A stretch of 64,000 bases of DNA, from the NCBI GenBank assembly GCA_023229575.1, contig JALNYZ010000009.1, forward strand, positions 69,581 to 133,580, in the 5' to 3' direction. Positions 5,309 to 37,153 of the stretch are shown here, in pieces. Source of the DNA: Prolixibacteraceae bacterium. GTDB taxonomy: Bacteria; Bacteroidota; Bacteroidia; Bacteroidales; Prolixibacteraceae. Below the pieces are notes generated by a model. It worked only from the letters and a program-made list of their open reading frames with translations. It did not search any database and had not been told where the DNA came from. The position numbers and the translations under genes are program-made. Numbering within the stretch: the first letter of the stretch is position 1; each line of letters opens with the position of its first letter.

Positions 5309-6916
5309 ATGAAGTTAATATTTTTGGTTCCCTTTCTGATTATTTCGCTGTGTGCGATGAAGGGGCCTTTAACAGCCGGTGAGGCTCCCAAAGGGATCCT
5401 GATTATCCCGATGCCTGGTGAGATTACCGTTCTCAACGGGACCTTTGTGATGAACGGTAAAACATCCATACAAGCCGGTCAGGACATACTTGTAAAGGCA
5501 GAACAATTACGGGCCTATCTTTCACCGGCTTCTGGTTACATGCTCCCGATTAATAAGATTATCTCCGGAGAAAATTTAATCGAACTTAAACTATCGAATG
5601 AACTATCATCCCTTGGAGAGGAGGGCTACAAACTGAATATAACCAATCAAAAGGTACTGATCACTGCTTATAAAATAACGGGGATATTTTGGGGTATTCA
5701 AACATTACGACAACTTTTCCCCAATGAAATATTGAGAGAGGCTGAAGTTGCTGGGGTTACATGGATGATTCCCTGTGTAAACATAGTTGACAAACCAAGG
5801 TTCAAGTGGAGAGGTTTGATGATTGACTACAGCCGAACTTTCTGGAATACACGTCATACCAAAAAGTACATAGATGCAATGGCATTCTACAAAATGAATA
5901 GACTGCATATGCACCTTACCGATGACCAGGGGTGGCGCCTTCAGATTGACAAGTACCCTGAATTGACCGCAAAAGCTTCGAAATTTGATACCATATATCA
6001 TGAGCCGAAGGAAAGGGAAGGGTTTTATTCAAAGGACGATATCCGCGAACTTGTGCGATACGCAGCGGCAAAAAATATAGAGATCATTCCTGAGATCGAA
6101 ATGCCCGGCCACACCTCAGAAGTACTTTCCGTATTTCCCGGATTATCTTGTACGGGTGAACTTGTGTCAATTCATCCCAACGGGAAAGGAAAGGTTAATG
6201 CAAAGGAGTTTTGTGCAGGGAAAGAGGAAACATTTACGCTCCTTCAAAATGTGCTTTCTGAGGTAATTGAGCTTTTCCCTTCAAAGTACGTACACATCGG
6301 TGGGGACGAATGTGACAAAGCTAGATGGGAAAAATGCCCTTTCGACCAGAAAAGGATCAAAGATGAAGGATTGAAGGATGAGAACGAACTGCAAAGTTGG
6401 TTTGTAAGACGGATAGAAAAATTCATAAACAGCAAAGGCAAGAAACTAATTGGATGGGACGAGATTTCGCAGGGAGGGCTTAGTAAATCTGCTACCGTGA
6501 TGTTTTGGCGGGGCGGAAAGGAAAAAATTGTTTTGGATGCTGTCAATCAAGGAAATGATGTGATAATGACCCCTACTTCCCATTTGTATTTTGATTACCC
6601 GTACGGTGGAAAATATACAGATTATCCGTACAATGGAATATCAACAGAGAGGGTTTACGCTTACGAACCTTGTTCCGGCATACTTAAAAATGTTAACCCG
6701 GAACACATTTTAGGGGTTCAGGCCAATTTTTGGTCCCATATTGACAGGACGGAGCCACGGATGGACCGGCAGATTTTCCCGCGCTTACTGTCGTTGGCTG
6801 AGGTCGGCTGGACGGAAAGCAAAAACAGGAACTGGGATAATTTCAGTTTAAGGCTTAAACATCAGTATAAATCATTGGATTTTTTGAATATTTATTATAT
6901 GGACACCAATAATTAG
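5309..6916 (+). CDS. GH20 beta-N-acetylhexosaminidase
   Basis: Signal peptide. Hallmark motifs RGLMIDYSRTF, HMHLTDDQGWRLQIDKYPELT and HIGGDEC (catalytic D-E pair). Confidence 0.9.
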   Translation: MKLIFLVPFLIISLCAMKGPLTAGEAPKGILIIPMPGEITVLNGTFVMNGKTSIQAGQDILVKAEQLRAYLSPASGYMLPINKIISGENLIELKLSNELSSLGEEGYKLNITNQKVLITAYKITGIFWGIQTLRQLFPNEILREAEVAGVTWMIPCVNIVDKPRFKWRGLMIDYSRTFWNTRHTKKYIDAMAFYKMNRLHMHLTDDQGWRLQIDKYPELTAKASKFDTIYHEPKEREGFYSKDDIRELVRYAAAKNIEIIPEIEMPGHTSEVLSVFPGLSCTGELVSIHPNGKGKVNAKEFCAGKEETFTLLQNVLSEVIELFPSKYVHIGGDECDKARWEKCPFDQKRIKDEGLKDENELQSWFVRRIEKFINSKGKKLIGWDEISQGGLSKSATVMFWRGGKEKIVLDAVNQGNDVIMTPTSHLYFDYPYGGKYTDYPYNGISTERVYAYEPCSGILKNVNPEHILGVQANFWSHIDRTEPRMDRQIFPRLLSLAEVGWTESKNRNWDNFSLRLKHQYKSLDFLNIYYMDTNN

Positions 6917-9435: not shown

Positions 9436-9443
9436 TACATTTG
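9436..9443 (+). promoter_or_regulatory. Candidate -7 box for the ECF sigma gene
   Basis: TACATTTG fits TAnnTTTG and lies about 60 nt upstream of the ATG at 9505. Confidence 0.35.
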
Positions 9444-9504
9444 TTAAGTCTAAATAATGATTAATGAAAGTTCATTATTTTTTAGGGAATTTAATTCGGG
9501 ATGA

Positions 9505-10071
9505 ATGGAGGAAGAGCTAAAAATATGGGAAAAAATCCGGAATGGTGATACCATGGCTCTAAAGGTATTACACGACAGGTACTATTACCAGTTGTACCTG
9601 TTTGGTAAAAAATTATGCGACAATCGCTCTGTTCTTGACGAGGTTGTTTCAGACTGTTTCATTAAACTTTGGACTAAACGCAACGATCTGGTAATCGAAC
9701 GATCTGTCAAATCGTATCTGTTTTTGATGTTGCATAACGGATTGATTGATGTACTACGCAGAAAGGACCATACCCTTTATTTGGAAGAAGGCGCCATGCC
9801 CGATCTGCCTGATGAAGGGATGCACAGCGAGCTGGATCTTTACGCAAGGCTCTACAAGGCGCTGGAAAAGCTCCCCGATCAACGTTGCCGGATCCTTGAA
9901 CTGGCAGTATTCGAATCGTGTAGCTATGCCGGGATAGCGGAGAAGCTCAATATTTCGGTAAATACGGTAAAGACCCAAATGGGGCGCGCTTACAGGTTTC
10001 TTAAAAATGAACTGGATCCCAAATCGTTGCAGTTGTTGTTTATACTCAAAGCCCTCAATAAGAAATGCTAA
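9505..10071 (+). CDS. ECF-type RNA polymerase sigma-70 factor
   Basis: 188 aa. Region-2-like segment DEVVSDCFIKLW. Region 4 HTH LPDQRCRILELAVFESCSYAGIAEKLNISVNTVKTQMGRAYRFLK. Confidence 0.85.
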   Translation: MEEELKIWEKIRNGDTMALKVLHDRYYYQLYLFGKKLCDNRSVLDEVVSDCFIKLWTKRNDLVIERSVKSYLFLMLHNGLIDVLRRKDHTLYLEEGAMPDLPDEGMHSELDLYARLYKALEKLPDQRCRILELAVFESCSYAGIAEKLNISVNTVKTQMGRAYRFLKNELDPKSLQLLFILKALNKKC

Positions 10072-13237: not shown

Positions 13238-14293
13238 ATGAAAGCGGCAATATTAGTAGACTTGAATCAAATAGCTGTTAAAGAGGTGAGTGATCCGGTT
13301 TGCGGAGAGTGTGAAATGGTTATCAGGCCTGAGTCAGTGGCAATTTGCGGTTCAGATGTCCGTATCTATCGATTCGGCAATGACCGGGTTTTTCCACCGA
13401 CTGTCATCGGCCACGAAATTGCCGGGACCATTATAGAGGTTGGCAATAAAGTAACCAACTTCAAAGTGGGACAACGGGTGGTTCTGGGAGCTGATGTCCC
13501 TGACATGGATACAGGTAGAAACTATACGCTGAAAGGTCAGGGGAACTTATGTCCTGAAAACCTGGCCATCGGATACCAGCTTGATGGAGCTTTCCAGCAA
13601 AAAATGAAATTGAATGAAAATACAGTCAAATATGGACCGATAGTCGAAATTCCGGATCATGTAAGTTTCGATGAAGCCGCTCTGGCAGAACCATTGGCTT
13701 GCGCCATACATGGTTTTGAAATGGCCCGAATGAGCATCGGAAAAAGTATTTGCATTATCGGGCTGGGCCCTTTGGGCTGTATGATGGTTGAACTAACAAA
13801 AAGCTATGGAGCCGGAAAAATTTTTGCTGCCCAGCGGTCCGAAAAGCGGCTTGACATGGCCCGCAAATTCTTATCCGCTGTTGATGCCACATTCATTTCA
13901 ACTGAAGAGGAAGACCTGGTTGAACGGGTAATGAAAGAAACCAACGGTGAAGGGGTTGATGTGGTAATTACGGCCGCCGGAACAGTGAAAGCACAAGAAG
14001 ATGCGATCAGAATCGTAAAGAAGAGAGGGGTTGTGAACCTGTTTGCAGGCCTTAAAAATCAGCCAAAACTTGAGATTGACACAAACCTGATCCATTACAA
14101 AGAGTGTACTGTTCTTGGTAGCCATGGTTCTAACCAGCCGGATGTTGAGAAAGCAATGACTTTGATAGCAAAAGGCGATATTAAAACAAAGAAATACATC
14201 TCCAGGTATTTTCCGCTCGACGATATCGTTGAAGCTATAGAATACCATGAGTCACGGAATGGTATGAAGGTTATCATTAAACCGCAACAATAA
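13238..14293 (+). CDS. Zn-dependent medium-chain dehydrogenase (sorbitol/threonine dehydrogenase-like)
   Basis: AICGSDV and GHEIAGTI motifs, and GLGPLG Rossmann motif. I prefer the ATG at 13238 (MKAAILV...) over the TTG at 13202. Confidence 0.85.
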   Translation: MKAAILVDLNQIAVKEVSDPVCGECEMVIRPESVAICGSDVRIYRFGNDRVFPPTVIGHEIAGTIIEVGNKVTNFKVGQRVVLGADVPDMDTGRNYTLKGQGNLCPENLAIGYQLDGAFQQKMKLNENTVKYGPIVEIPDHVSFDEAALAEPLACAIHGFEMARMSIGKSICIIGLGPLGCMMVELTKSYGAGKIFAAQRSEKRLDMARKFLSAVDATFISTEEEDLVERVMKETNGEGVDVVITAAGTVKAQEDAIRIVKKRGVVNLFAGLKNQPKLEIDTNLIHYKECTVLGSHGSNQPDVEKAMTLIAKGDIKTKKYISRYFPLDDIVEAIEYHESRNGMKVIIKPQQ

Positions 14294-14304
14294 TATCTTT
14301 CAAA

Positions 14305-14991
14305 ATGGGAAAAATAAAACTTTCACCATCGATGATGTGTGCCGATTTTTTGAACATCCAAGACGAATTGGATATTTTTCAGAAATACAACATTGATTTT
14401 CTGCATATTGATGTAATGGATGGTCATTATGTGCCTAACTACACACTAGGCATTGATTTCTGTAAAAGCCTGAAACGATATTCATCCATTCCACTGGATA
14501 TTCACCTGATGATCGAAAATGTAGACCAATACATCGAATCATTTTGTCAGTTTGAAGGTTCATGGGTGAGTTTTCATCCTGAAACCACATGGCATCCGGT
14601 GCGCACCATTGAACAGATTAAAAGGCACAAATGCAAAGCCGGAATTGCGATTGATACTGCCGTAAGCATTGACCAATATAAAGAACTCTACGAACTGGTT
14701 GATTTTGTACTGGTCATGACTGTTACTCCTGGTTATGCCGGACAAAAGATTCTTCCGTTCTGTCTTGAAAAAATAGCTAAGTTAAATGCAGATTTCAAAC
14801 AAGCCAATATAATGGCAGCTATAGAGGTGGATGGTAACGTAAGTTGGGAAAATATCCCATCAATGGTAGAGGCCGGAGCAACTGTATTGGTAAGTGGATC
14901 ATCATCCATTTTCGATTCAAAATTCGGCAGGTCAGAGGCAATTGAACGTGTCAGGGAGTTGCTTGAATTTTACGAAGAGGCTGAGCTTTGA
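14305..14991 (+). CDS. Ribulose-phosphate 3-epimerase family, D-allulose-6-phosphate 3-epimerase (AlsE)-like
   Basis: KLSPSMMCADFLNIQDE....FLHIDVMDGHYVPN...LDIHLM...VMTVTPGYAGQ...EVDG follows the RPE/AlsE pattern along the whole length. Confidence 0.85.
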   Translation: MGKIKLSPSMMCADFLNIQDELDIFQKYNIDFLHIDVMDGHYVPNYTLGIDFCKSLKRYSSIPLDIHLMIENVDQYIESFCQFEGSWVSFHPETTWHPVRTIEQIKRHKCKAGIAIDTAVSIDQYKELYELVDFVLVMTVTPGYAGQKILPFCLEKIAKLNADFKQANIMAAIEVDGNVSWENIPSMVEAGATVLVSGSSSIFDSKFGRSEAIERVRELLEFYEEAEL

Positions 14992-15060
14992 CAGAGAATA
15001 ATTTGCATGGTAATACTGATTTGATAACCGCATAATTAATTAACCAATAAAACAATCAAC

Positions 15061-15149
15061 ATGAAAAAAAGTGAGCCATTGAAAGATCCTATGATCTCGC
15101 TAAAGAACAATATGCCGAATTAGGTATAGATACCGATCAGGTAGGATAA
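15061..15149 (+). pseudogene. Truncated, frameshifted N-terminal relic of an L-rhamnose-isomerase-like gene
   Basis: ATGAAAAAAAGTGAG is followed, one frame over, by A-IERSYDLAKEQYAELGIDTDQVG-stop. This matches the RhaA N-terminus pattern (E. coli [23 protein letters not shown]). No further homology follows nt ~15146. Confidence 0.5.
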
Positions 15150-15309
15150 GGTAATTATTACAATTGAAGTTCACTAGTCCAGACGATATTTTTAAGATAT
15201 GTAATACTCAATAAAAACGTAAACTAAAAGAAATTGATTTGTAATTTCTCTATTCCCTGTCACCCTTTTCCTCATTTCATGCGTCATATCTTAAGAAATA
15301 CAGCACTTA

Positions 15310-16308
15310 ATGGACAATACACAGGATTCCTACTGGGAAAAAATGGCAGGAAAACTTCACGGGGAACTAAGCAAGGAGGATGAAGTTGGTTTCGATGAAC
15401 TAATCTCTGATCAAGGTCGTTTATTGGAATTTAATAGGGTACGAAGTATTCGGGACAACCTATCCCTGGCCGGTTCTTGTCCGATTGATGGCAAGGAGAA
15501 ATCATGGAGCAGGGTGCAAGCCTCTATTCGGTGGACCAAAATTCGATGGATCAATACAACACTGAAATATGTGGCAATTGTTGTAGTAGCCTTTGTAGCC
15601 GGTATATTGCTTCAATCCAATTTAACTGGCAGCACAACGCTGCACTTCTCCGAAATACATATCCCATACGGTCAAATGGGCCAGCTCACACTGAGCGATG
15701 GAACAGAGGTATGGCTGAATTCCGGAACTACCCTTAGGTATCCCGACCGGTTCGGAACCAGGAGCAGGAATGTAGAGGTAATTGGGGAGGCCTTTTTTAA
15801 AGTAGCCAAGATTCCTGATAAGCCTTTTACTGTCAATTCGACAGATTTAAATATAGAGGTTCTGGGCACATCTTTCAATTTCTCAGCCTATCAGAGGGAC
15901 AATTTCTCTTCAGTTACACTGGTTGAGGGTAAAGTTGCCATTCAGGACAATGAGGGGGTAACCATTGCCCAACTCCATCCGGGTCAGATCGCCAAAAAAG
16001 TCAATAGTTCAAAAAAAATGGACATTAATGAGGTAAATACAACCTCTTATGCTGCATGGACTGATGGTAAAATGCTTTTTGAAGATGAAAGGTTGGATCA
16101 GATTGCTTTTAAATTGGAGCGATGGTTCAATGTGGAGATCTCTTTTGCCGATCCTGAGTTAAAGTCCAAACGGTTTACGGGCACCATACTGAAATACAAA
16201 CCGGTGGATCAGATCATGCAGGCGCTGGAACTTCTTGCCCCAATCAAATTTATACACAAAATAAATACCAATGGAAAAGATCAAATAACCATATTTAAAC
16301 GAACTTAA
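15310..16308 (+). CDS. FecR-family anti-sigma factor (transmembrane sensor)
   Basis: Short cytoplasmic N-domain, a single TM (YVAIVVVAFVAGILL), and a periplasmic FecR / DUF4974-like C-terminus (EGEAFF.V, V.V.GT.FN..AY). It lies directly upstream of an STN-bearing SusC. Confidence 0.85.
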   Translation: MDNTQDSYWEKMAGKLHGELSKEDEVGFDELISDQGRLLEFNRVRSIRDNLSLAGSCPIDGKEKSWSRVQASIRWTKIRWINTTLKYVAIVVVAFVAGILLQSNLTGSTTLHFSEIHIPYGQMGQLTLSDGTEVWLNSGTTLRYPDRFGTRSRNVEVIGEAFFKVAKIPDKPFTVNSTDLNIEVLGTSFNFSAYQRDNFSSVTLVEGKVAIQDNEGVTIAQLHPGQIAKKVNSSKKMDINEVNTTSYAAWTDGKMLFEDERLDQIAFKLERWFNVEISFADPELKSKRFTGTILKYKPVDQIMQALELLAPIKFIHKINTNGKDQITIFKRT

Positions 16309-16339
16309 AAACAGGATTGCCTATGAAAAAGTGAAGACC

Positions 16340-16414
16340 AAAAAGGCGGTGAAGATGTTCGTACCATCTTCACCGCAGCATGTGATTCAAACAAACCCTT
16401 TTAAATTAATTTAA
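16340..16414 (-). ncRNA. Candidate cis-antisense sRNA (DonS-like) opposite the susC 5' leader
   Basis: Perfect 12-bp hairpin at 16346-16376. On the minus strand it is followed by CTTTTTGG; on the plus strand it has no U-tract. The minus-strand box TAAATTTG (16428->16421) fits TAnnTTTG. The architecture recurs at 33597-33683. The ends are predictions only. Confidence 0.35.
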
Positions 16415-16427
16415 ATCATACAAATTT

Positions 16428-19400
16428 ATGAAAATGCACCAAATTATCCTTGGCGATAAAAGGTCGTGGATAAAAAAACTCAGAATAATGAAACTAACTG
16501 TCATTCTGTTGTTTGGAAGTATGGTTGCCATGAGTGCAACTACTTATTCTCAGACTGCCAAACTGAATATCTCTTCTAAAAACGCCGCACTGATTGATGT
16601 TTTCAGGAACATTGAAGATCAAAGCGAATTCTATTTTTATTTCAACAAAGAGGACTTAAAGACAAAAGAAGCTGTGACTGTTGAAATGAAAGATGCACAG
16701 ATCAATGACGTTCTGGATCAGGTTTTGGCAAAAACCGGATTGGAATATAAAATTATTGACCGGTATGTTGTTGTCAAAGAGAAGGGAAGTGATGAACCAG
16801 TCATTACCATGCAAGTGGCGCGTAAAATAACAGGAAAAGTCACTGACACCACAGGCGGGGCATTGCCCGGTGTGACTGTTGCCATCAAAGGAACAACAAC
16901 AGGTGTGATCACCGATAACAACGGTAACTATTCTTTGTCCAATGTTCCAGATAATGCTGTTTTGGTTTTCTCATTTGTTGGATTGAAAAACCAGGAAATT
17001 CCAGTAGGAGGCAAATCGGTTATCAACGTATCGATGGCAGAAGAAGCGCTGGGGATCGAAGAGGTTGTTGTAACAGGTTATTCTACTCAACGAAAGAAGG
17101 ATATTACTGGTGCGGTAGCCGTTGTGGATGTTCAATCCATGAAGGCAATGCCTTCTGGATCTGGTGTTGTTGCCCTCCAGGGGCAGGCATCGGGTGTCAA
17201 TATTATCAGCAGTGGGGCTCCGGGGGCGGCCAGTCAGATTTATATCCGCGGTATCGGAAACTTTGGAAATGTTGCCCCGCTCGTGTTGATTGACGGAGTA
17301 GGGGGAAATCTAGAGGATATCAGCGCCAACGAAATTGAGTCCCTCCAGGTGTTGAAAGACGCCGGATCCGCTGCTATTTACGGTGTGAGAGGGTCCAATG
17401 GTGTAATTATTGTAACCACCAAAAAAGGTAAAACCGGCGCTCCGACTGTTTCCTATGATGCTTATGCTGGCCTTCAGTTGCCTTTCAGCGGCAACCCGCT
17501 GAATATGGCAAACACAGAGGAGTATATAAAATTATTTAAATCCGCTATTCCTTACCACGGCTTCGATAATGGTATTCCTGATTACATGTACAGGAGTGGT
17601 AGCGGCGCTGCTGCCTGGGCTATGGCGGGCGACCCTGCTGTAGATCCGGCAAAGTATAAATATGATCCAATCACCCTCGGTACCAATTATATCATCGCGA
17701 AGGTCAATAAGCAAGGAACAAACTGGTACCAGGAAATCTTTAAGCCAGCAGTAACCAGCAACCAGGATTTAACCGTAAGTGGCGGAACGGAGAAGGCCAA
17801 ATACCTGCTTTCCCTGGGTTACCTGGATCAAAAAGGCACGCTTATTGAGACTTATCTTAAAAGGTATTCATTTAAGGTAAATACTGAATACAATGTGGGC
17901 AAGCATATCCGCATTGGTGAAAATTTATATATCATCCGTAAAGCAGGCAATGGTTATACCAACACTTCAGAGAGCAATGCAGTTTCGAACGCCATGTTGA
18001 TAAACCCGCTGTTTCCGGTATACGATATCTCCGGGAAACAATTTGCAGGCGCCTATTCTTACCCCATTACCACTATGCTGGCGTACGGTTCAAACCCAGT
18101 CGCTAACCAGAAACTGACGAATAACAATTATGACCATTCCCTTCAGTTAACTGGTAACATATATGCAGAAATCTCCTTCTTAAAACATTTTGTGGCGCGC
18201 ACCAGTATGGGATTAAGCCTGGGCAATTCAGAAGGAAGTGGATTTGCCTACAACCGCTATTTTGATGCCCAGTCCTTTGCAGTCCCCAACAATCTGACTT
18301 TATCCATGGGGAATAGCTGGAGTTATCTTTTCACAAATACTTTGAAATACGAAAATACTTTTGGCGACCATAAACTGTCAGTATTGGCTGGTTCTGAAGC
18401 AAATGAAGGTATGTCAAAAAGTGTTTATGGATACAGGCAAAATTTTCTGGTCAGTGATGCAGACTATCTCCTGTTGCAGAACGGCAGTATCGATGGGATA
18501 CAAAACGGCAGCGGCAAATCCCATGGGACCCTGTTTTCCCTTTTTGGCCGCGCGGATTATTCTTACCTGGATAAATACCTTCTGGCACTGACCATCCGTC
18601 GAGATGGCTCTTCATCTTTCGGGCCCAAGAGCAGGTATGGCTATTTTCCTTCAGTATCTGTAGGATGGCGCTTATCCGGCGAATCATTCCTGAAAAATAT
18701 TTCGTGGTTAAACGATTTGAAGATCAGGGCCAGTTATGGTCAGGCAGGTAATGCGAGCAATGTTAATCCCAATAATGCATACTCTGTCTTTGGAACAGGA
18801 GTCGGTAAATCCTATTATGATATAGCCGGTAGCAATAACAGCTCGACCCAGGGTTTTTATGCAAGCCAGCTAGGAAATGACCTGACTTCATGGGAAAAGG
18901 ATATTATCACCAATTTCGGACTTGATGGTACGATACTGAACAACAAGATTGAATTTTCTGCGGAGTATTACAAAAAATCAATTGAGGGATTGTTGTTTGA
19001 CCAGCAATTACTTGCCACCGCCGGTGGGGCTGCTGCACCAAAAGTGAACATTGGCGACATTCAGAACAATGGATTGGATATTTCTGTGACCTATCGGGAT
19101 AAATTCAGCAAGGATTTGAGTTTTAACATTACAGCCAACATTACGAGTTATAACAACAAAGTAGTTAGTATCCCTGGTCAGGCAGGCTATTTTGATACAG
19201 GCGCCCTACGCGGGGTCGGTAATGTTGTTCGTAATCAGGTAGGTCATCCGGTGGGCGCTTTCTTTGGGTACAAAGTTATTGGAATCTTTAAGGATGCTGC
19301 TGCAGTTGCCGCTGCGCCTGCCCAGTTGGACAAAAGGCCGGGGGTATTTCAATACGATGATACCGATGGTAAACCTGGTATAACAGCTGCTGACCGAGTT

Positions 19401-19919
19401 TTCATGGGTAGTCCAAATCCTGATTATACATATGGGGTGAATATCGGACTGAACTATAAGAATTTTGACTTCTCAACTGTTTTCTATGGCTCTCAGGGGA
19501 ATGAGATATTTAACCAAACAAAATTTTATACCTATTTCACAAGCTTTTTCCAATGCGGTCTGAATAGAAACCTGTTGAATGCCTGGTCACCGACCAATAC
19601 CGGTTCGGATATCCCTGTATTGTTAAGTACCGCCAGTTTCAGCGAAAACACGGTTCCAAATTCATGGTTCATTGAAGATGGTTCCTTCTTCAAATGCAGG
19701 TTAATTACACTGGGTTATACGTTGCCCCCTTCCGTGCTTAAAAAGCTGACACTTCAGAAATTAAGGGTATATCTGCAGGCGGTCAACCCCTTCCAGATTA
19801 CAAAATACAGTGGATTGGATCCTGAAATTCCGGGCAGTACATCAGCCTTTGGAATTGACGTAGGTAACTATCCCAACAACCAAAGGCAATTTAATGCGGG
19901 TATAAGTTTATCATTCTGA
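16428..19919 (+). CDS. SusC/RagA-family TonB-dependent transporter with N-terminal STN signalling domain
   Basis: 1163 aa. STN domain (TYSQTAKLNISSKNAALIDVFRNIEDQSEFYFYF...), then a CarboxypepD_reg-like domain (ITGKVTDTTGGALPGVTVAIKGTTTG), a plug (IESLQVLKDAGSAAIYGVRGSNGVIIVTTKKG), and a barrel ending ...NAGISLSF. Confidence 0.95.
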   Translation: MKMHQIILGDKRSWIKKLRIMKLTVILLFGSMVAMSATTYSQTAKLNISSKNAALIDVFRNIEDQSEFYFYFNKEDLKTKEAVTVEMKDAQINDVLDQVLAKTGLEYKIIDRYVVVKEKGSDEPVITMQVARKITGKVTDTTGGALPGVTVAIKGTTTGVITDNNGNYSLSNVPDNAVLVFSFVGLKNQEIPVGGKSVINVSMAEEALGIEEVVVTGYSTQRKKDITGAVAVVDVQSMKAMPSGSGVVALQGQASGVNIISSGAPGAASQIYIRGIGNFGNVAPLVLIDGVGGNLEDISANEIESLQVLKDAGSAAIYGVRGSNGVIIVTTKKGKTGAPTVSYDAYAGLQLPFSGNPLNMANTEEYIKLFKSAIPYHGFDNGIPDYMYRSGSGAAAWAMAGDPAVDPAKYKYDPITLGTNYIIAKVNKQGTNWYQEIFKPAVTSNQDLTVSGGTEKAKYLLSLGYLDQKGTLIETYLKRYSFKVNTEYNVGKHIRIGENLYIIRKAGNGYTNTSESNAVSNAMLINPLFPVYDISGKQFAGAYSYPITTMLAYGSNPVANQKLTNNNYDHSLQLTGNIYAEISFLKHFVARTSMGLSLGNSEGSGFAYNRYFDAQSFAVPNNLTLSMGNSWSYLFTNTLKYENTFGDHKLSVLAGSEANEGMSKSVYGYRQNFLVSDADYLLLQNGSIDGIQNGSGKSHGTLFSLFGRADYSYLDKYLLALTIRRDGSSSFGPKSRYGYFPSVSVGWRLSGESFLKNISWLNDLKIRASYGQAGNASNVNPNNAYSVFGTGVGKSYYDIAGSNNSSTQGFYASQLGNDLTSWEKDIITNFGLDGTILNNKIEFSAEYYKKSIEGLLFDQQLLATAGGAAAPKVNIGDIQNNGLDISVTYRDKFSKDLSFNITANITSYNNKVVSIPGQAGYFDTGALRGVGNVVRNQVGHPVGAFFGYKVIGIFKDAAAVAAAPAQLDKRPGVFQYDDTDGKPGITAADRVFMGSPNPDYTYGVNIGLNYKNFDFSTVFYGSQGNEIFNQTKFYTYFTSFFQCGLNRNLLNAWSPTNTGSDIPVLLSTASFSENTVPNSWFIEDGSFFKCRLITLGYTLPPSVLKKLTLQKLRVYLQAVNPFQITKYSGLDPEIPGSTSAFGIDVGNYPNNQRQFNAGISLSF

Positions 19920-19944
19920 TGTTACTCTTTAAAATTATAAAACG

Positions 19945-21753
19945 ATGAAAAAAATATATTTTAAAATAACTTATGCAGTATGTCTGATGACCATGTTATC
20001 ATTCATTTCCTGTACAAAGTCTTATCTGGATATAAAACCTATAGGAAGCGTAAGTGTAGCAATCCTTGCCAATAAAACCGGCGTCAACAAAGTACTCATT
20101 GGCGCTTATGCAACGCTGGAAACAAACCATTCGAACAACGTTGGTTATGGTGACGGATATTGGGTTGGCTATGGCCCGTTTTATTCGGATATCGCTTCAC
20201 ACGAAGCAATATGGGGTTTTCAATATGAGCCAAATACCAATTCATTTGAGCGGCATGATGGACAACCCTCCTATAAAGTATTTGCCTATCATTGGGTGAA
20301 TTTCTATTATGGCGTTCAGGCCGCCAATGATGTATTGCGTGTATTGGCAGCTGTGCCGACAGATCAGCTTACCGCAGCCGAAGCCTTGCAGATTAAGGCA
20401 GAAGCAACATTCTTAAGGGCCCTCCACCATTTTAGGCTAAAAAAGACGTTTGGGAATGTTCCATATATCGATGAAACCATTACGGCCAACAACTGCAATG
20501 TATCAAACGCTACCTCGATATGGCCAAAAATTGAGGCAGATTTTAAATTTGCCGCGGATAATCTGGATGAGACAAAGGCTGATGTTGGCAGGGCCAATAA
20601 ATGGGCCGCAAAGGCATTCCTGGCCGAAGTGTATATGCAACAGGGTAAATATTCCGATGCATTGCCTTTGCTTACCAGTTGCATCACCAACGGAGTTACC
20701 CAAAAGGGCTTGAAATATGCCCTTGTAGCCAATTATCCCGATATTCTCAATTTTAGAAAAGAGGCCAACTCCGAACAGGTGTTTGCAATTCAGTTCACCT
20801 TCGACGGTACATCGGTTGCCGCCCCAAATGGCAACTGGGAATATGCTGTTATTCAACCGGTAACCCCGCCCAATCAGGGAGGCGGTGGTGGTTTCTGCTC
20901 TTTTGATATGGTGAACGCCTTTAAAACCGATGCCGTTACAGGGTTGCCTATGTTTGACACTTACAATGATGTTAACATGACGAATGACCAGGGTCTAGGT
21001 CTTAATGATCCGTTTACTCCATATGCAGGGACAGTCGATCCAAGGCTGGATTTTACCGTTGTACGAAGGGGGATTCCATATTTCGACTGGGGATTGTACA
21101 ATGTCAACTGGGCTTACGATCAACCGGAGACGGGCCCTTACTCCTGGAAAAAGTTTTCATTCAATAAAGCTGACCTGGCTGCGGTGCAAGCTAACTGGGT
21201 TGCAGTTTCCCCAATCAATGTTCCCCTTATACGGTTTGCCGACATACTGCTGCGTGCGGCTGAATGTCTGGTTGAAACAGGTGGAAGCCTCTCCACTGCT
21301 GAAGGATATGTGAACCAGGTGAGACAGCGGGCCGCCAACCAAAGTGCATGGGTTAAAACCTATGTTAACAATAGTAGTCCTGCATTGGGGTTCACCAATA
21401 CACCAGCTGCAAATTACTTCATCAGTCCTTATACCGGTCAGTTTACGGCCAATGGCGCAACTTATGCCCGTAAGGCAATTCGTTTTGAAAGAAGGCTAGA
21501 GCTGGCATTGGAAAGTAAGCGTTTCTTTGACCTGCAGCGCTGGGATGCCGGTTCAGGTAGCATGGCAACTGAATTGAACCGCATACTTGATCATTCAAGA
21601 TCCTTTATGACAATTTATAAAGGTATTTATCCGAATATGGTTGGGGCCAAATTCACAAAGGGGAAAAACGAAGTATTTCCTATCCCGCAATCCCAAATTG
21701 ACTTGAGTATGGTCGAAGGCAAACCCGTATTGGTTCAAAATCCCGGGTATTAA
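19945..21753 (+). CDS. SusD/RagB-family lipoprotein
   Basis: Lipobox LSFISC followed by TKSYLD. It is adjacent to the SusC gene. The C-terminus reads RFERRLELALESKRFFDLQRW ... VQNPGY. Confidence 0.9.
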   Translation: MKKIYFKITYAVCLMTMLSFISCTKSYLDIKPIGSVSVAILANKTGVNKVLIGAYATLETNHSNNVGYGDGYWVGYGPFYSDIASHEAIWGFQYEPNTNSFERHDGQPSYKVFAYHWVNFYYGVQAANDVLRVLAAVPTDQLTAAEALQIKAEATFLRALHHFRLKKTFGNVPYIDETITANNCNVSNATSIWPKIEADFKFAADNLDETKADVGRANKWAAKAFLAEVYMQQGKYSDALPLLTSCITNGVTQKGLKYALVANYPDILNFRKEANSEQVFAIQFTFDGTSVAAPNGNWEYAVIQPVTPPNQGGGGGFCSFDMVNAFKTDAVTGLPMFDTYNDVNMTNDQGLGLNDPFTPYAGTVDPRLDFTVVRRGIPYFDWGLYNVNWAYDQPETGPYSWKKFSFNKADLAAVQANWVAVSPINVPLIRFADILLRAAECLVETGGSLSTAEGYVNQVRQRAANQSAWVKTYVNNSSPALGFTNTPAANYFISPYTGQFTANGATYARKAIRFERRLELALESKRFFDLQRWDAGSGSMATELNRILDHSRSFMTIYKGIYPNMVGAKFTKGKNEVFPIPQSQIDLSMVEGKPVLVQNPGY

Positions 21754-31369: not shown

Positions 31370-31547
31370 GAAACTACAGGCCATAACTTTGTTAATTCTT
31401 GTTAAAAAATGCAATGATCAGTTTTATATAGCCCTCTGATCACATGGGTTTGTAATTTAGACTGAATATTTGAACTTTTCCGGGAGTAATTTCTGAGAAA
31501 TAGTTAGCTTTATACTTTAGGGAACTAACTATCTTAACAAACGTCCT

Positions 31548-32156
31548 ATGAAGAAGCAGGATAACAACGACTATCATGCTATTTGGGAATCGTTTATAAC
31601 AAACGGCAATCATGAAGCCATAGGAATGATCTATTTTGGTCATTACGACTTGCTGTATAATTTTGGTTTGAAGTATACAAAAGATGTTCAGGTCATTGAA
31701 GATGCAATTCAAAATACCTTCGGTTATTTTCTTAAAACTGGCCGCAAACTAAGCCCCGTCACCAATTTACGCTCGTTTCTCCTTCAATCATTTCGCCATC
31801 GGTTGCTTCTCGAACTTAAACGCAGAAGCAGAATTTTTCACATGCATGCGATTGAAGCTAAAAACGTTGGTTCACACGAGCCGGAAGTCAATGAAAAAAT
31901 AGAACAGGAATGGAGCAGCTGGCTAGGGAAAAAAATTTCCAAATGCATGGAACGTCTTACCGGGAAGCAGAAGGAGATACTCTATCTGCGTTTCCAATGT
32001 GACCTTTCCTATGCTGAGATTGCATCCATGCTGGATATCACGGTCGATTCGTGCTACAAGATGACCTATCGTTCCCTCAAAGAGCTTCGGGAGGATATAG
32101 AAGAATTGGAATCCATCGGGCATCGCTTGATTATGTTTTTCATGATAAAATCCTGA
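31548..32156 (+). CDS. ECF-type RNA polymerase sigma-70 factor
   Basis: 202 aa. Region 4 HTH LTGKQKEILYLRFQCDLSYAEIASMLDITVDSCYKMTYRSLKELR. It lies upstream of a FecR/SusC(STN) set. Confidence 0.8.
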   Translation: MKKQDNNDYHAIWESFITNGNHEAIGMIYFGHYDLLYNFGLKYTKDVQVIEDAIQNTFGYFLKTGRKLSPVTNLRSFLLQSFRHRLLLELKRRSRIFHMHAIEAKNVGSHEPEVNEKIEQEWSSWLGKKISKCMERLTGKQKEILYLRFQCDLSYAEIASMLDITVDSCYKMTYRSLKELREDIEELESIGHRLIMFFMIKS

Positions 32157-32215
32157 AAGTTATTCTCATTTATTGATAGGCCCTCCTGTCGGCCGGCATA
32201 TAAATATTGCATTTT

Positions 32216-32257
32216 CAAAAAAAAACACTTTTTTTCAAAAAAAGGTGTTTTTTTTTG
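32216..32257. terminator. Long A/T hairpin, bidirectional terminator-like
   Basis: CAAAAAAAAACACTTTTTTT-C-AAAAAAAGGTGTTTTTTTTTG forms a stem of about 20 bp with one bulge and has T-runs on both strands. It starts 60 nt after the sigma stop. Confidence 0.45.
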
Positions 32258-32414
32258 TCCAGATTTCATTTTTGCCTGACTCTTATACTAAACTAAGCTT
32301 ATCAGATACAAAACACATCCCGGTAAACCGGAACGAATGAGAAAACAATCAGCCATAAGCGGATCGGCTATACCGATCTAAACTATTTGATCTTAAAATT
32401 CAAAATTTTAAAAA

Positions 32415-33578
32415 ATGAACCTTAATCGTTTCAACTCATATAGTGCAGAGGATTTTGTTATCGATGAAATATTCTGTGAGATTGTTGGTGGGGGTACACC
32501 TGCCGTTCAAAATCTAAAAGAACAGTTTCCATTTAAGAAACATGAGATTGATTTAGCTGTAGAGATGCTTAACAAACTGCAGAGTTTGGAATTTCAACAA
32601 TCTCCTGAAAAAAAACTTGAGCAGTGGGACCAAATTCTTAAAAATAAGCGAAAATCCATCAGGTTCACGATTTTCAGGATTGCGGCCGCTGTGCTTTTGA
32701 TTATCGGAAGTACCGCCATCGCCTATTATCAACTGTCGAGACACTCCATTATCAACCAATTAGCCTCCACAAAGGAGGTTAATTATGCAAATGCAAGGTT
32801 GATCTTGGTTGACGGAGAGCAAATCGACATTGGCCAAAACCGGCCAAATATTAAATATTCAGCCGATGGGGCCGGTGTTTTAGTCAATGATTCAACCGAA
32901 AAGCGGCAATCGGTCAATACGGATGGGTTTAATCAGGTCATCGTTCCCTTTGGTCAACATACCTATTTAATCCTGTCTGACGGAACAAAGGTTTGGATCA
33001 ACTCGGGATCACGCCTTGTTTATTCCCCGGTTTTTAAAGGGAAAAGCAGGGAAGTTTTTTTGGAAGGGGAGGCCTATTTTGAAGTTACGAAAGACGAAAA
33101 TAAACCTTTTTATGTTGGAACGAATGCATTCCGTGTAAAAGTATACGGAACGAAGTTCGATGTACAGGCTTACAAACAAAACAATGAATACAATACCATT
33201 TTGATGGAGGGAAAAGTAAGTCTTGAAGCAAACAAGGGTGGGATAATGGCGAAGGAACAATTTCTTTACCCGGATCAAAAGGCCACGCTATCAGATAATA
33301 AGAAAGATTTTCTTGTTTCTGAAGTCGCCAATATTGAAAACTATACCGCCTGGAAAGATGGATACCTGCTCTTTAAAAATGAGGCTTTTCAATCCATCTT
33401 AAAACGGGTATCCCACTATTACAATGTTGATATTGAACTTAATGATGAGATTCAGGTTAGACGGTTGTCCGGAAAACTTGACTTAAAAGAGGACCCGGAA
33501 AGGGTACTGGAAGGTTTGGCCTTAATTTCGAAAATCCGTTTTGTAAAAACCAATAATAAATATCGTTTTTATGAGTAA
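32415..33578 (+). CDS. FecR-family anti-sigma factor
   Basis: Single TM (IFRIAAAVLLIIGSTAIAYY) and a FecR/DUF4974-type periplasmic part (EGEAYFEV, V.VYGTKFDVQAY). Confidence 0.85.
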   Translation: MNLNRFNSYSAEDFVIDEIFCEIVGGGTPAVQNLKEQFPFKKHEIDLAVEMLNKLQSLEFQQSPEKKLEQWDQILKNKRKSIRFTIFRIAAAVLLIIGSTAIAYYQLSRHSIINQLASTKEVNYANARLILVDGEQIDIGQNRPNIKYSADGAGVLVNDSTEKRQSVNTDGFNQVIVPFGQHTYLILSDGTKVWINSGSRLVYSPVFKGKSREVFLEGEAYFEVTKDENKPFYVGTNAFRVKVYGTKFDVQAYKQNNEYNTILMEGKVSLEANKGGIMAKEQFLYPDQKATLSDNKKDFLVSEVANIENYTAWKDGYLLFKNEAFQSILKRVSHYYNVDIELNDEIQVRRLSGKLDLKEDPERVLEGLALISKIRFVKTNNKYRFYE

Positions 33579-33596
33579 CTAACCGTTTTGTAGATG

Positions 33597-33669
33597 AAAA
33601 AACCGGTTAATGGTCGAAACATTAACCGGCTAAAGTAAATCATGCCGCTAGGCAACATGTTTAATTAAT
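33597..33669 (-). ncRNA. Candidate cis-antisense sRNA (DonS-like) opposite the susC 5' leader, locus 2
   Basis: 10-bp hairpin CCGGTTAATG/CATTAACCGG (33603-33629), followed by TTTTTT on the minus strand only. The minus-strand box TACTTTTG (33683->33676) overlaps the susC ATG in the same register as at 16421-16428. Confidence 0.35.
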
Positions 33670-33682
33670 TCAATTCAAAAGT

Positions 33683-36600
33683 ATGAAAAAAGATCCAAAT
33701 GATTGCTCTTTCCTCTTGGGAAAGAGGTTAAAGATTAATTGGCTAGCTATGAAATTGTTAACGATTTTGCTCTTTACCGGTTCGATGACATTGTCGGCCA
33801 GTTCCTATTCCCAGAAGACAAAAATTGACTTGCACCTGCAAAACTCTTCATTGTCAGAAATATTTAGTTTGATTGAAAAATCGAGCGACTTTATTTTTTT
33901 CTACAATGATGAGATTTTAAATGATAAAGTCAGAAAATCGGTTTCTGTGGATGGAGAGAAGATCGAGGTAATTCTTGAGCAGTTGTTTGAGGGAACAAAT
34001 ATTGCCTACAAGATTGATGACAGGCAGGTTTTCCTATACAACAAGGATGATTTAAAATCACTTGAAACCCTCGTTTCCATTTCCTTAGTTCAACAACCTA
34101 AGAATAAGGAGGTTTCAGGAACTGTGCACGACTCAAAGGGACAACCATTGCCCGGGGCCACCATCCTGATCAAAGGGACAACCTTGGGTATTGTTACCGA
34201 TATTGATGGAAAATTCAGGTTTAATGTTCCGCTCGATGCGAAAACACTGGTAATTTCCTTTGTCGGTATGAAGTCACAGGAAATCGCGATTGCAGCGAAA
34301 AGAACTTTCGATGTTGTGCTGGCAGAGGAGACAGTTGGATTGGAAGAGGTAGTGGCTGTGGGGTACAGCATTCAAAAGAAGGAGTCTGTTGTAGGCGCCA
34401 TCTCACAAGTAAATAATGCTGCATTGATGCAGTCAGGATCCCCCAATATTACCAGTTCCTTGTCGGGTAAGCTTTCTGGTGTTTTGACCATACAGCAAAC
34501 CGGCTTACCCGGACAAAGTCAATCTGAAATTATTATCCGGGGTTTGTCCAGTTGGAGTGGTTCAGCGCCATTGATCCTGATTGACGGTGTCGAACGTGAT
34601 TTTCAGGATATGGATCCCAATGAAGTCAATACGATTTCGGTGTTGAAGGATGCGTCTGCCACTGCAGTATTCGGATCCAAAGGCGCCAATGGGGTTATTC
34701 TTGTAACCACCAAACGTGGGAAATTGGGCAAGCCTCAAATTACTTTTACAGGTTCTGCAGGGGTTGAGTCAGCCACAAGATTGCCCTCCTTTGTTGATTC
34801 ATACACCACCTTGTCAATGATGAATGTTGCCAGGATGAATTCTCAGAGGTTCAAAGAACTGACCCCGCAAAATATCCTCAATGAATACCGTAATCCTTCC
34901 TCCCCGTTAAAAGCAATTCAATATCCGAGTGTCGATTGGATCGGTATGCTTACCAAACCATTTGCCCCATCGGCCAATTCCAACCTTAGTGTTACCGGTG
35001 GTACAGAGTTTGTAAAATATTTTTTGATGCTTGGGGACCAGTATGAAGGCAGTTTATTAAAATATGCAAAAAGTGGATATTCTGATGCCAATTATTGGTT
35101 TCACCGGTTTAATTACCGGGCCAATCTGGATTTCACCCTCTCCAAAACAACTCAGTTGTCGCTCAACATAGGAGGCGAAGTAGGGATTAGAAACCAGCCA
35201 ACCGAAGCCTTTTATGGTGACTGGAAAGACTTCTATGGTGCAGCGGTAAGCGATTTCCCCGCAAATTATCCCGATTGGGTATTGAAACAGATTCCGGATA
35301 CCGACTATCCCAATGCCACTGGTTTAAGGAGAGCGGCCACTACCGGAAGCTTCATTCTGAATCCATGGAGCAACGTAAACACAGGTTCTTTCTCACGATC
35401 TTTGGATTCTAAGTTGTTTACCGACCTTGTTTTGGACCAAAAACTCGACTTTATTACGAAAGGGTTATCATTGAAAGGTAAAGTCGCGCTAAATACTTAC
35501 TACAATCACCAGATATTGTATGCCAATTACACCAACCCAGCCTATCGGATCATCTGGTCCAGGGTAGGAGTGGACGCGAATGGCGATGGAATTGTTGATC
35601 AAAACCCCTGGGAACGGGATGGACAGGGCCAGGAATATTATACCCCGCCCAAACTGGATATGAATGTAGGAGGATTGACCGGTAGTTATTACTACGATCG
35701 TTATTTCGAGGGCTCCTTAAATTACAGCAATACTTTCGGGAAACATTCTGTTACAGGATTGGCGCTGATCAATTTTCAGGAAAAAGACCGTGGAACAGAA
35801 TTCCCCTACTACAATGAAGCGCTCGTTGGCAGGGCAACTTACGATTATTCACATAAATATTTTGCTGAGATTAACATCGGATATACCGGCTCTGAAAGGT
35901 TTGCACCAAGTAACCGATTCGGGTTCTTTCCTTCAGGCGCCATCGGATGGACCATCTCAGAGGAGAAATTCTTTAAAAATAACGTAGCCTGGATGAACAA
36001 GCTGAAGTTGCGCTACTCCGACGGAGTGGTTGGTAGTGATTACGCCGCTAGCCGATGGCTTTACAAGAGCGATTTCTATTTAGACTATGCAGGAATTGTC
36101 ACTGAAGACAAAGGTGCAAATACTTCTGCCCAGTGGGAAGAGGCAAGGAAAAGGGACCTGGGGATCGAAATAGGTATTTTCAAGAACCGTTTCACATTCA
36201 GTGTGGATTTGTTCGACGAACAGCGTTCTAAAATGCTGATGACGCCGTTGAGTACAACCTTCCTGATTGGCAATTCATTTAAAGACCTGAACATTGGCCG
36301 TATAAAAAAACATGGAATAGAAGTTGAGGCTGAGTACAATAATACGACGGCCAACAATATCAACTATTTTATTAAGGGAAACTTTTCGTTCAATGAAAAC
36401 CGCATTTTATTCAGGGACGATCCGGTTTATGCCCCCGACTATACCAAGGCTGCGGGTAAACCCTTGGGCGCCCAATTAAATGGGGAGACACTGACCGGTA
36501 CCGGATATTTTACCTCAGTGGATGACGTACACATCAATCCTTCCCCAATCGCATTGGAGAAACTTTATGTAGGCGATTATAAATTTTTGGATTACAATGC

Positions 36601-37153
36601 TGATGGGATTGTCAGTAGTGCAGACGGTCATGCCATCAAAGGTCAGGCTTATGCACCGATTACCTATTCTTTCTCAACCGGGTTTAGTTACAAAGGATTT
36701 AATTTAAGTATCATGTTCCAGGGGAACTATGGTAAGAACATACAAATGAGCCCGGTTAGTGAGATGGAATTTTATACCGGTCAACCCCGGGTGCACATGT
36801 CACAAATGGATTATTGGAGACCCGACAACCAGGATGCAACCCATTCTACATTGCGTATCAGCGCTTCCGAGGCGGGCGATATCATTTATACATGGGGGCC
36901 GCTTTTGCAGGACCGGTTGTGGAGGAATGCCTCTTACCTGCGGTTAAAGGAGATTTATGCCGGCTACAATATCAATTCAGGTTTGATCAAGCGATTGACA
37001 GGCATATCAGGGATGCTTGTCTATGCCAATGCCACCAATGTGCTGACATTTACCAAGTTGCTCAAAGAGTGGGACCCTGAAGTCAAAAGTATAGGCACGG
37101 GATGGTATCCCCAGTTAAGCCGTTACAATCTTGGTGTGAAGTTTACTTTCTAA
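33683..37153 (+). CDS. SusC/RagA-family TonB-dependent transporter with STN domain
   Basis: 1156 aa. STN (SYSQKTKIDLHLQNSSLSEIFSLIEKSSDFIFFY), CarboxypepD_reg (VSGTVHDSKGQPLPGATILIKGTTLG), a plug (ISVLKDASATAVFGSKGANGVILVTTKRG), and an ending in ...NLGVKFTF. Confidence 0.95.
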   Translation: MKKDPNDCSFLLGKRLKINWLAMKLLTILLFTGSMTLSASSYSQKTKIDLHLQNSSLSEIFSLIEKSSDFIFFYNDEILNDKVRKSVSVDGEKIEVILEQLFEGTNIAYKIDDRQVFLYNKDDLKSLETLVSISLVQQPKNKEVSGTVHDSKGQPLPGATILIKGTTLGIVTDIDGKFRFNVPLDAKTLVISFVGMKSQEIAIAAKRTFDVVLAEETVGLEEVVAVGYSIQKKESVVGAISQVNNAALMQSGSPNITSSLSGKLSGVLTIQQTGLPGQSQSEIIIRGLSSWSGSAPLILIDGVERDFQDMDPNEVNTISVLKDASATAVFGSKGANGVILVTTKRGKLGKPQITFTGSAGVESATRLPSFVDSYTTLSMMNVARMNSQRFKELTPQNILNEYRNPSSPLKAIQYPSVDWIGMLTKPFAPSANSNLSVTGGTEFVKYFLMLGDQYEGSLLKYAKSGYSDANYWFHRFNYRANLDFTLSKTTQLSLNIGGEVGIRNQPTEAFYGDWKDFYGAAVSDFPANYPDWVLKQIPDTDYPNATGLRRAATTGSFILNPWSNVNTGSFSRSLDSKLFTDLVLDQKLDFITKGLSLKGKVALNTYYNHQILYANYTNPAYRIIWSRVGVDANGDGIVDQNPWERDGQGQEYYTPPKLDMNVGGLTGSYYYDRYFEGSLNYSNTFGKHSVTGLALINFQEKDRGTEFPYYNEALVGRATYDYSHKYFAEINIGYTGSERFAPSNRFGFFPSGAIGWTISEEKFFKNNVAWMNKLKLRYSDGVVGSDYAASRWLYKSDFYLDYAGIVTEDKGANTSAQWEEARKRDLGIEIGIFKNRFTFSVDLFDEQRSKMLMTPLSTTFLIGNSFKDLNIGRIKKHGIEVEAEYNNTTANNINYFIKGNFSFNENRILFRDDPVYAPDYTKAAGKPLGAQLNGETLTGTGYFTSVDDVHINPSPIALEKLYVGDYKFLDYNADGIVSSADGHAIKGQAYAPITYSFSTGFSYKGFNLSIMFQGNYGKNIQMSPVSEMEFYTGQPRVHMSQMDYWRPDNQDATHSTLRISASEAGDIIYTWGPLLQDRLWRNASYLRLKEIYAGYNINSGLIKRLTGISGMLVYANATNVLTFTKLLKEWDPEVKSIGTGWYPQLSRYNLGVKFTF

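Follow-up and report, generated by a model that had tools for sequence, protein, structure and literature searches.

A predicted DonS-like cis-antisense RNA gene between fecR and susC in a polysaccharide utilization locus of a Prolixibacteraceae genome

In Bacteroides fragilis, the small RNA DonS is reported to affect susC expression negatively and to repress its polysaccharide utilization locus (PUL), acting "through an unknown mechanism". Published lengths of the DonS family are 78-128 nt (PMC7366714), and BTnc009, BTnc055, BTnc077 and BTnc249 of Bacteroides thetaiotaomicron measure 81-140 nt in the supplementary table of the same study (PMC7366714). A 2024 B. thetaiotaomicron atlas annotates 32 PUL-associated antisense RNAs, among them BTnc009, BTnc055, BTnc077, BTnc123, BTnc210, BTnc249 and BTnc252. 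Here we analyse a 64-kb stretch of a Prolixibacteraceae genome (contig JALNYZ010000009.1, positions 69,581 to 133,580), called the window below, in which an earlier note had proposed a DonS-like cis-antisense RNA between the anti-sigma factor gene fecR and susC of one PUL (locus 1). We find that a minus-strand gene for such an RNA, of the PUL-associated DonS-like kind, is probably present in this fecR-susC gap; within the reach of sequence analysis, the proposal of the note is supported.

Like the DonS-like RNAs, the element lies antisense to susC, in the gap that separates this STN-domain gene from a FecR-type anti-sigma gene, with all of its features falling within 16340-16428 of the minus strand (Table 1). 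Every base that the earlier note had given for the hairpin and the box is present in the sequence. The hairpin is a 12-nt inverted repeat with 100% complementarity, perfect as described, and all of its 12 pairs are Watson-Crick in the window, 7 of them G-C. The stem is followed by AGCATGTG on the plus strand and by CTTTTTGGTCTTCACTTTTTC on the minus strand; CTTTTT stands only on the latter, which agrees with a terminator oriented against susC. At the other end of the gap, CAAATTTA on the plus strand reads TAAATTTG on the minus strand, and a minus-strand box does lie over the susC ATG. This box matches the canonical sigma-ABfr (PM1) sequence TAnnTTTG near the susC start, and its T1 pairs with the A of the ATG at 16428, the last A of CAAATTTA.

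Performing a ViennaRNA-based scan, we find that the hairpin is the strongest minus-strand terminator-like hairpin across the 64 kb (-20.9 kcal/mol). In a consensus terminator scan, the total of which was at chance level (6 found vs 4.9 expected), it was the best minus-strand terminator in 14000-20000. Its sequence occurs once in the window and was matched in none of the shuffles. Because the hairpin is unique in the window, an origin from a repeat or a mobile element was rejected. The 80 nt of the minus strand from 16417 to 16338 fold with -29.6 kcal/mol (z = -6.6), and none of 200 shuffles folded as well. The hairpin resembles a generic Rho-independent terminator in its GC-rich stem, 7-nt loop and U-tract. 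Unlike a generic terminator, it faces against both flanking genes; it therefore ends neither the fecR nor the susC mRNA and needs an antisense promoter of its own to serve a purpose. An 18-nt AT-rich inverted repeat (83% complementary) also links the end of fecR (16293-16310) with the region just upstream of susC (16399-16416), and is probably due to chance.

The window holds a second copy of the module at PUL 2 (locus 2), a sigma-FecR-SusC locus at 31548-37153 with the layout of locus 1 and an adjacent ECF (extracytoplasmic function) sigma gene. Strong minus-strand terminators occur in 2 of the 20 intergenic gaps of the window, and these are only the two FecR-SusC gaps. Likewise, a CAAAnnTATG start is found in 2 of 36 genes, only the two STN-susC genes. 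The sequence CAAANNTATG occurs five times in the window, as often as expected by chance; two of the five fall exactly on the start codons of the window's only two STN-SusC genes, and none on the 34 other gene starts.

BTnc249 of B. thetaiotaomicron served as the positive control for this layout. It is the antisense partner of susC BT_4357, has a PM1 promoter and extends over 106 nt from a start at 5741424(-) to a 3′ end at 5741318 (PMC7366714 supplement). It belongs to the Northern-validated RNAs of the main text and is flagged in the supplement as present in Cao et al. 2016 too (PMC7366714). No sense start site for BT_4357 is recorded in the B. thetaiotaomicron supplements. Scanning metagenome contigs for an exact pattern, the internal sequence given in the supplement, we retrieved the BTnc249 locus (L066; tgCATAATTTTGtattG), which has FecR and STN-SusC on either side. 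The T1 of its box, TAATTTTG, stands opposite the A of the BT_4357 ATG, which is the register of the window, and transcription was mapped to start 5 nt past the box G. The RNA ends in ATGGGGAGAT-ctgccaaa-ATCTTCCCAT, followed by ACTTTTTT, that is, in a purine-rich hairpin with one G.U pair and a T-tract. The window terminator is likewise a purine-rich hairpin with a T-tract; the G.U pair occurs in BTnc249 and in the consensus of the window's orthologs and not in the window stem itself. The ortholog consensus GGTGAGGATG..CATCTTCACC is similar to BTnc249 GGGGAGAT..ATCTTCCC, including the G.U pair, in a stretch too short to speak for homology. A mapped RNA thus has the same box register and terminator arrangement as the DonS-like layout claimed for the window. 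BTnc249 itself contains two hairpins (L066 6421-6443 and 6466-6493) with near-identical loops, CTGCCAA and CTGCCAAA.

We then compared the hairpin among orthologous loci. The FecR protein of locus 1 has more than 100 orthologs with 53-83% identity, some of them named Prolixibacteraceae. A genome scan with this single protein as the query gave no relatives, whereas an alignment query succeeded and gave 62 loci, 21 of which are orthologous (Prolixibacter, Tangfeifania, Mariniphaga and other Prolixibacteraceae). The noncoding block from the conserved sense-strand motif GCCTATGA to the ATG is conserved in all 21, with a mean identity to the window of 79%, compared with means of 71% for the adjacent fecR and 74% for the adjacent susC coding DNA. 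Stem pairing was analysed over an 11-bp core in 19 orthologs with 50-68% FecR identity. On the minus strand, 98.6% of the stem cells form standard pairs and 3 cells are unpaired; on the plus strand, the figures are 85.6% and 30. Each of the 20 one-sided substitutions gives G.U when read on the minus strand and A.C when read on the plus strand, and compensatory double changes occur at 3 pairs (such as U-A to C-G, with U.G found as well). The wobble changes affect 4 pair positions and both arms, with at least 9 independent events when the haplotypes are read. None of 500 shuffles reached the observed pairing values. In 18 of the 19 orthologs, five or more T come immediately after the stem on the minus strand; L021, which is degenerate, has TAATTTTT. 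The pairing asymmetry and the retention of the T-tract together show that the hairpin is maintained as a terminator of minus-strand RNA, so the orientation put forward in the earlier note holds among the orthologs.

These data bear on a very unlikely alternative, in which no antisense RNA exists. Hairpin, A-run and conserved blocks would then be elements of the sense strand or of the DNA (a leader, an ECF promoter or a regulator site), and CAAAnnTATG would serve susC translation. Such a reading would account for the high conservation of the primary sequence of stem and loop, for the CGT in the plus-strand loop TTCGTAC, which is typical of an ECF -10 element, and for the conservation of GCCTATGA on the sense side; with no plus-strand terminator between fecR and susC, the gap is probably contained in a sense transcript too. 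However, most orthologs have A.C mismatches in the plus-strand stem, where the unpaired cells accumulate, and the T-tract is always on the minus side. The A-run is separated from the CG of the loop by ~15 nt in locus 1 and ~11 nt in locus 2, which fits a stem and not a -35/-10 pair. The start context fits all fixed positions of TAnnTTTG without an A at -3, and the B. thetaiotaomicron RNA has been mapped from the same arrangement. A specific ECF promoter, with the A-run as the -35 and the loop CGT as the -10 element, was rejected, since the two elements would stand too close together, at a distance that is not the same in loci 1 and 2, and the stems are not conserved between families.

To see how far the arrangement extends, we took a census of 56 FecR-to-SusC gaps in 26 sequence families, from Prolixibacteraceae, Pedobacter, Chitinophagaceae and Cytophagales; a terminator was counted where one single hairpin with a folding energy of at most -9 kcal/mol stood ahead of a T-run. 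Minus-strand terminators were found in 47 of the 56 loci and 20 of the 26 families (21 with L039, judged by eye), and plus-strand terminators in no locus and no family. At the family level, this bias of 20 vs 0 of 26 has a binomial p of 2e-6. An exact TAnnTTTG whose T1 faces the A of an early ATG in the susC frame occurs in 45 of 56 loci (18 of 26 families), and 4 further families have a 7-of-8 match, so the box keeps its register in related gaps, a point the earlier note had marked for checking. When 25 representative loci are aligned on the ATG, T1, A2, T5 and T6 are found in 25/25 and T7 and G8 in 23/25. The logo thus fixes a T at -1 and a C at -7 of the susC context and leaves -3 free. Kozak-like start contexts of Bacteroidota are expected to have an A at -3; hence, a Kozak-like A preference or translation context does not explain the box.

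The RNAs predicted in the census are also alike in size and shape. The distance from box to T-tract gives lengths of 74-123 nt in 47 gaps, in agreement with the published 78-128 nt, and most of the predicted RNAs have an internal hairpin, including those of unrelated families. Even between unrelated families, the terminator stems are similar (GGGRRAATG...CATTYYCCC), with a purine-rich 5′ arm and a G.U pair. The count of G.U vs A.C in the hairpins of unrelated families (21 vs 9) is biased by the hairpin finding and by loop positions and was not used. The same terminator orientation and box-to-ATG register recur in most of the FecR-to-SusC gaps sampled, across four classes of Bacteroidota.

The census also bears on another very unlikely alternative, that the minus-facing terminator is an insulator keeping pervasive antisense transcription out of fecR and the sigma gene, with the ATG box unrelated to it. 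Spurious promoters commonly give rise to antisense transcription in AT-rich genomes (PMC7366714), and in many loci the terminator comes immediately past the fecR stop codon. Yet box and terminator tend to co-occur (both in 16 families, neither in 4; Fisher p = 0.05), the spacing between them is confined to the 74-123 nt given above, and the mapped B. thetaiotaomicron RNA starts at the box. From the conserved orientation, the box register and the BTnc249 layout, the window element therefore appears to be a new member of the DonS-like family.

The RNA of locus 1 can be outlined from these features. Because the BTnc249 start lies 5 nt past the box, and because sigma-A boxes of flavobacteria occupy -12 to -5 (PMC9723704), we predict a start at 16416. 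From there to 16340 the RNA would measure ~77 nt, close to the ~75 nt estimated earlier, and would stand at the lower edge of the published 78-128 nt, a length that rests on the predicted start. In a tentative 5′ stem-loop of this RNA, 95.3% of the ortholog cells pair, and U.G pairs exist on the minus strand only; its covariation is weak, with a double change at one pair and 51 of 500 shuffles reaching the observed pairing.

In the mechanism that we favour, a housekeeping-sigma promoter of the TAnnTTTG (-7) type, with its box over the susC start codon, would start transcription at ~16416. The transcript would proceed for ~77 nt against susC, and transcription would stop at the 12-bp hairpin and U-tract, shortly past the fecR stop codon. 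In analogy to DonS, this RNA would pair with the susC leader or with a fecR-susC read-through transcript and lower SusC until the ECF sigma factor is released. Any transcript that runs through the gap would be matched by it, perfectly, over -12 to -88. Such read-through transcripts are likely, because no plus-strand terminator lies between fecR and susC in any locus. The antisense promoter may also compete with incoming sense transcription. Repression by the window RNA is thus proposed on the model of DonS, as an RNA-level brake on basal SusC synthesis, possibly with added interference between two polymerases.

An unlikely variant takes the antisense promoter as real and the RNA as a by-product: the polymerase at the sigma-A box would act on ECF-sigma sense transcription by promoter competition or transcriptional interference, and the terminator would only shield fecR. 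The locking of the box to the start codon in one register, even in distant lineages, suits such a positional mechanism at the DNA level. The RNA-level selection on the terminator would then be explained by the need to terminate, the 5′ helix is weakly supported, and the positive correlations between sense and antisense RNA in B. thetaiotaomicron fit poorly with a simple titrating repressor RNA. On the other hand, the whole 77-nt region is conserved as much as coding DNA or more, and the internal hairpin in predicted RNAs of unrelated families suggests that the RNA body matters. DonS, moreover, is reported to be a small RNA with a negative effect on susC expression.

Several observations weigh against a repressive DonS-like RNA at locus 1. 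BTnc249 and its susC correlate positively in the 2024 B. thetaiotaomicron atlas (r = 0.75), as do BTnc055 (0.66) and BTnc123 (0.52). The predicted RNA begins ~12 nt upstream of the ATG and does not cover the start codon; should the ECF promoter be located in the stretch from the hairpin to the ATG, there would be hardly any overlap of this RNA with the susC mRNA made on induction. The box varies among the orthologs, being TAAATTTC in 3 close ones and TAGATTTA or TAGATTCT in two others. A conserved -33 TTTG element upstream of the box was not seen in the aligned loci. The primary sequence of stem and loop is more conserved than termination needs, the loop being nearly invariant in the orthologs. 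Every census locus was reached via one FecR subfamily, and none of them is from Flavobacteriia. Rfam gave no match at the gathering threshold in the whole window and no relevant match at E <= 10 in 16250-16520.

The element also differs from the described DonS-like RNAs in several respects. Unlike the Bacteroides members, its host is a Prolixibacteraceae-like metagenome-assembled genome (Marinilabiliales), and its PUL encodes enzymes for plant-type and not host glycans, with SusD, a GH3 enzyme and an arabinofuranosidase downstream of susC. Locus 1 has no adjacent ECF sigma gene, and the RNA, although of a similar size class (~77 nt predicted vs 78-128 and 81-140 nt), is at the short end. The predicted RNA has neither detectable overall sequence homology to the DonS-like RNAs nor an Rfam model.

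Other RNA-based systems acting on susC were compared as well. FopS/GibS of B. thetaiotaomicron are trans-acting small RNAs that target the 5′ regions of susC mRNAs and repress PULs; the FopS RNAs are multicopy and mostly intergenic, have a conserved 5′ seed and are reported as a family deposited in Rfam. Like them, the window element would be a small RNA with a sigma-A promoter and an intrinsic terminator, both predicted here. Unlike them, it is encoded in cis at its own target and matches no Rfam family. Membership of FopS/GibS, as judged by family model and R1 seed, was rejected with no Rfam match in the window or the gap. The dCas12f-sigmaE RNA-guided systems that target susCD (PMC13472631) lack FecR and do not apply to this locus.

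The sense strand of the gap carries the motif GCCTATGA upstream of the hairpin. GCCTATG is invariant in 19/19 orthologs, and the eighth base is A in 17 and G in 2. The motif lies 106-112 nt from the ATG in the orthologs, with one at 128 nt. By eye, it is present in ~12 of the 26 gap families, 12-41 nt upstream of the hairpin and sometimes within the last fecR codons; the carriers among the other gaps include L027, L028, L032, L037, L040, L043, L044 and L063. At the equivalent place, the B. thetaiotaomicron locus has GTAGTATGA (L066 ~6518-6526). A -35-like AAC upstream of GCCTATGA varies in spacing from 10 to 16 nt by reading, with no fixed distance. A mini-open reading frame starting in GCCTATGA (ATG plus 2-6 codons) was judged a chance occurrence in AT-rich DNA. 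Insertions of roughly 40-110 nt between the fecR stop codon and GCCTATGA are seen in L003 (3040-3135), L009, L010, L013, L014, L017, L020 and L021, and the one in L003 contains GAGAGTT tandem repeats; the length from GCCTATGA to susC stays within the values given above.

The flanking genes of locus 1 were inspected on both sides. The second Met codon of susC is replaced by ATT or CTG in the orthologs L017, L020 and L021 with the frame kept, and therefore the upstream ATG at 16428 is the real start. STN-SusC proteins have a conserved extension of ~20 amino acids ahead of the signal peptide (16428-16490 in the window), the Lys codons of which (ATGAAAAAA) account for the T-rich sequence immediately ahead of the antisense box. 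On the upstream side of fecR (14992-15309) there is no adjacent ECF sigma gene but a ribulose-phosphate epimerase gene. The nearest sigma-like open reading frame is at 9505-10071, 5 kb off, and is preceded by a sigma-A type box, TACATTTG, at 9438-9445.

Two further observations concern locus 2. A GGAAC-N16-CGTC sequence (CGTCCTATG, 31521-31548) adjoins the ATG of its ECF sigma gene, which suggests, as a lead only, that the sigma mRNA may be autoregulated and nearly leaderless. GAAC-N14-18-CGTC occurs in the window at chance frequency, and the copy adjoining the sigma-2 ATG is suggestive at most. An AT-rich palindrome at ~32216-32258 in the gap between sigma-2 and FecR-2 has an A-run on one side and a T-run on the other (AAAAAAACAC-TTTTTTTCAAAAAAA-GGTGTTTTTTTTT) and resembles a terminator for both directions.

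Table 1. Positions of the antisense module, its second copy and the flanking genes in the window
Feature	Position	Strand	Basis or remark
FecR-type anti-sigma factor gene	15310..16308	+	Pfam FecR, FecR_C
Conserved motif GCCTATGA	16319..16326	+	candidate susC promoter element or protein site
Terminator tail CTTTTT (T-tract)	16340..16345	-	read from sequence
Terminator stem arm 1, GCGGTGAAGATG	16346-16357		plus-strand letters
Terminator stem arm 2, CATCTTCACCGC	16365-16376		plus-strand letters, after loop TTCGTAC
Intrinsic-terminator stem-loop, 12 bp, loop GUACGAA	16346..16376	-	sequence and ortholog pairing
Tentative 5′ stem-loop GAUUUAAAU...GUUUGAAUC, two U.G pairs	16384..16417	-	minimum free energy and consensus folds
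Predicted ~77-nt cis-antisense RNA	16340..16416	-	complementary to -12 to -88 upstream of susC
Predicted transcription start, an A, 5 nt after the box G	16416	-	from BTnc249 and sigma-A box spacing
Predicted sigma-A type -7 box TAAATTTG (TAnnTTTG)	16421..16428 (16428->16421)	-	sequence match
STN-domain SusC-like TonB-dependent transporter gene	16428..19919	+	Pfam STN, CarboxypepD_reg, Plug
Second module copy at PUL 2	33597..33684	-	same register, unrelated stem sequence
Locus 2 box TACTTTTG	33684-33677	-	from CAAAAGTATG at the susC start
Locus 2 terminator CCGGTTAATG/CATTAACCGG	33629-33603	-	A6 run on the plus side adjoins the stem
Locus 2 T-tract TTTTTT	33602-33597	-
Locus 2 predicted RNA start	~33672	-	predicted length ~76 nt

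A broader reading, which we put forward tentatively and hold to be possible rather than probable, is that the module belongs, as an ancient unit, to ECF/anti-sigma-controlled SusC systems throughout Bacteroidota and is not peculiar to Bacteroides. The fixed register, the purine-rich terminator with its G.U pair and GCCTATGA would then point to one shared mechanism, possibly with a protein partner, that sets basal SusC for trans-envelope signalling. Such a unit could consist of a sigma-A -7 box on the susC start codon, an RNA with one or two hairpins and a terminator adjoining fecR, and the coupling could act at both the promoter and the RNA level.

The window alone offers a well-supported annotation and no surprise. 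The DonS-like class was already known; the comparisons support, as the new element here, a candidate member from a lineage other than Bacteroides, in a PUL for plant glycans. Of more interest are the wider conservation and the constant register of box and ATG, and no description of these outside Bacteroides was found in the literature searched, the original DonS paper aside. In PULs under ECF/anti-sigma control, a little SusC is needed for substrate sensing, and the system must otherwise be off. To our knowledge, no post-initiation control other than the DonS-type antisense RNAs is known at the susC of such PULs. If the module does exist in Prolixibacteraceae, Pedobacter, Chitinophagaceae and Cytophagales, and if its promoter keeps a single register on the start codon, many natural variants would be at hand for work on the mechanism, and a minus-facing terminator after fecR together with CAAAnnTATG at susC would provide an annotation rule for environmental Bacteroidota.

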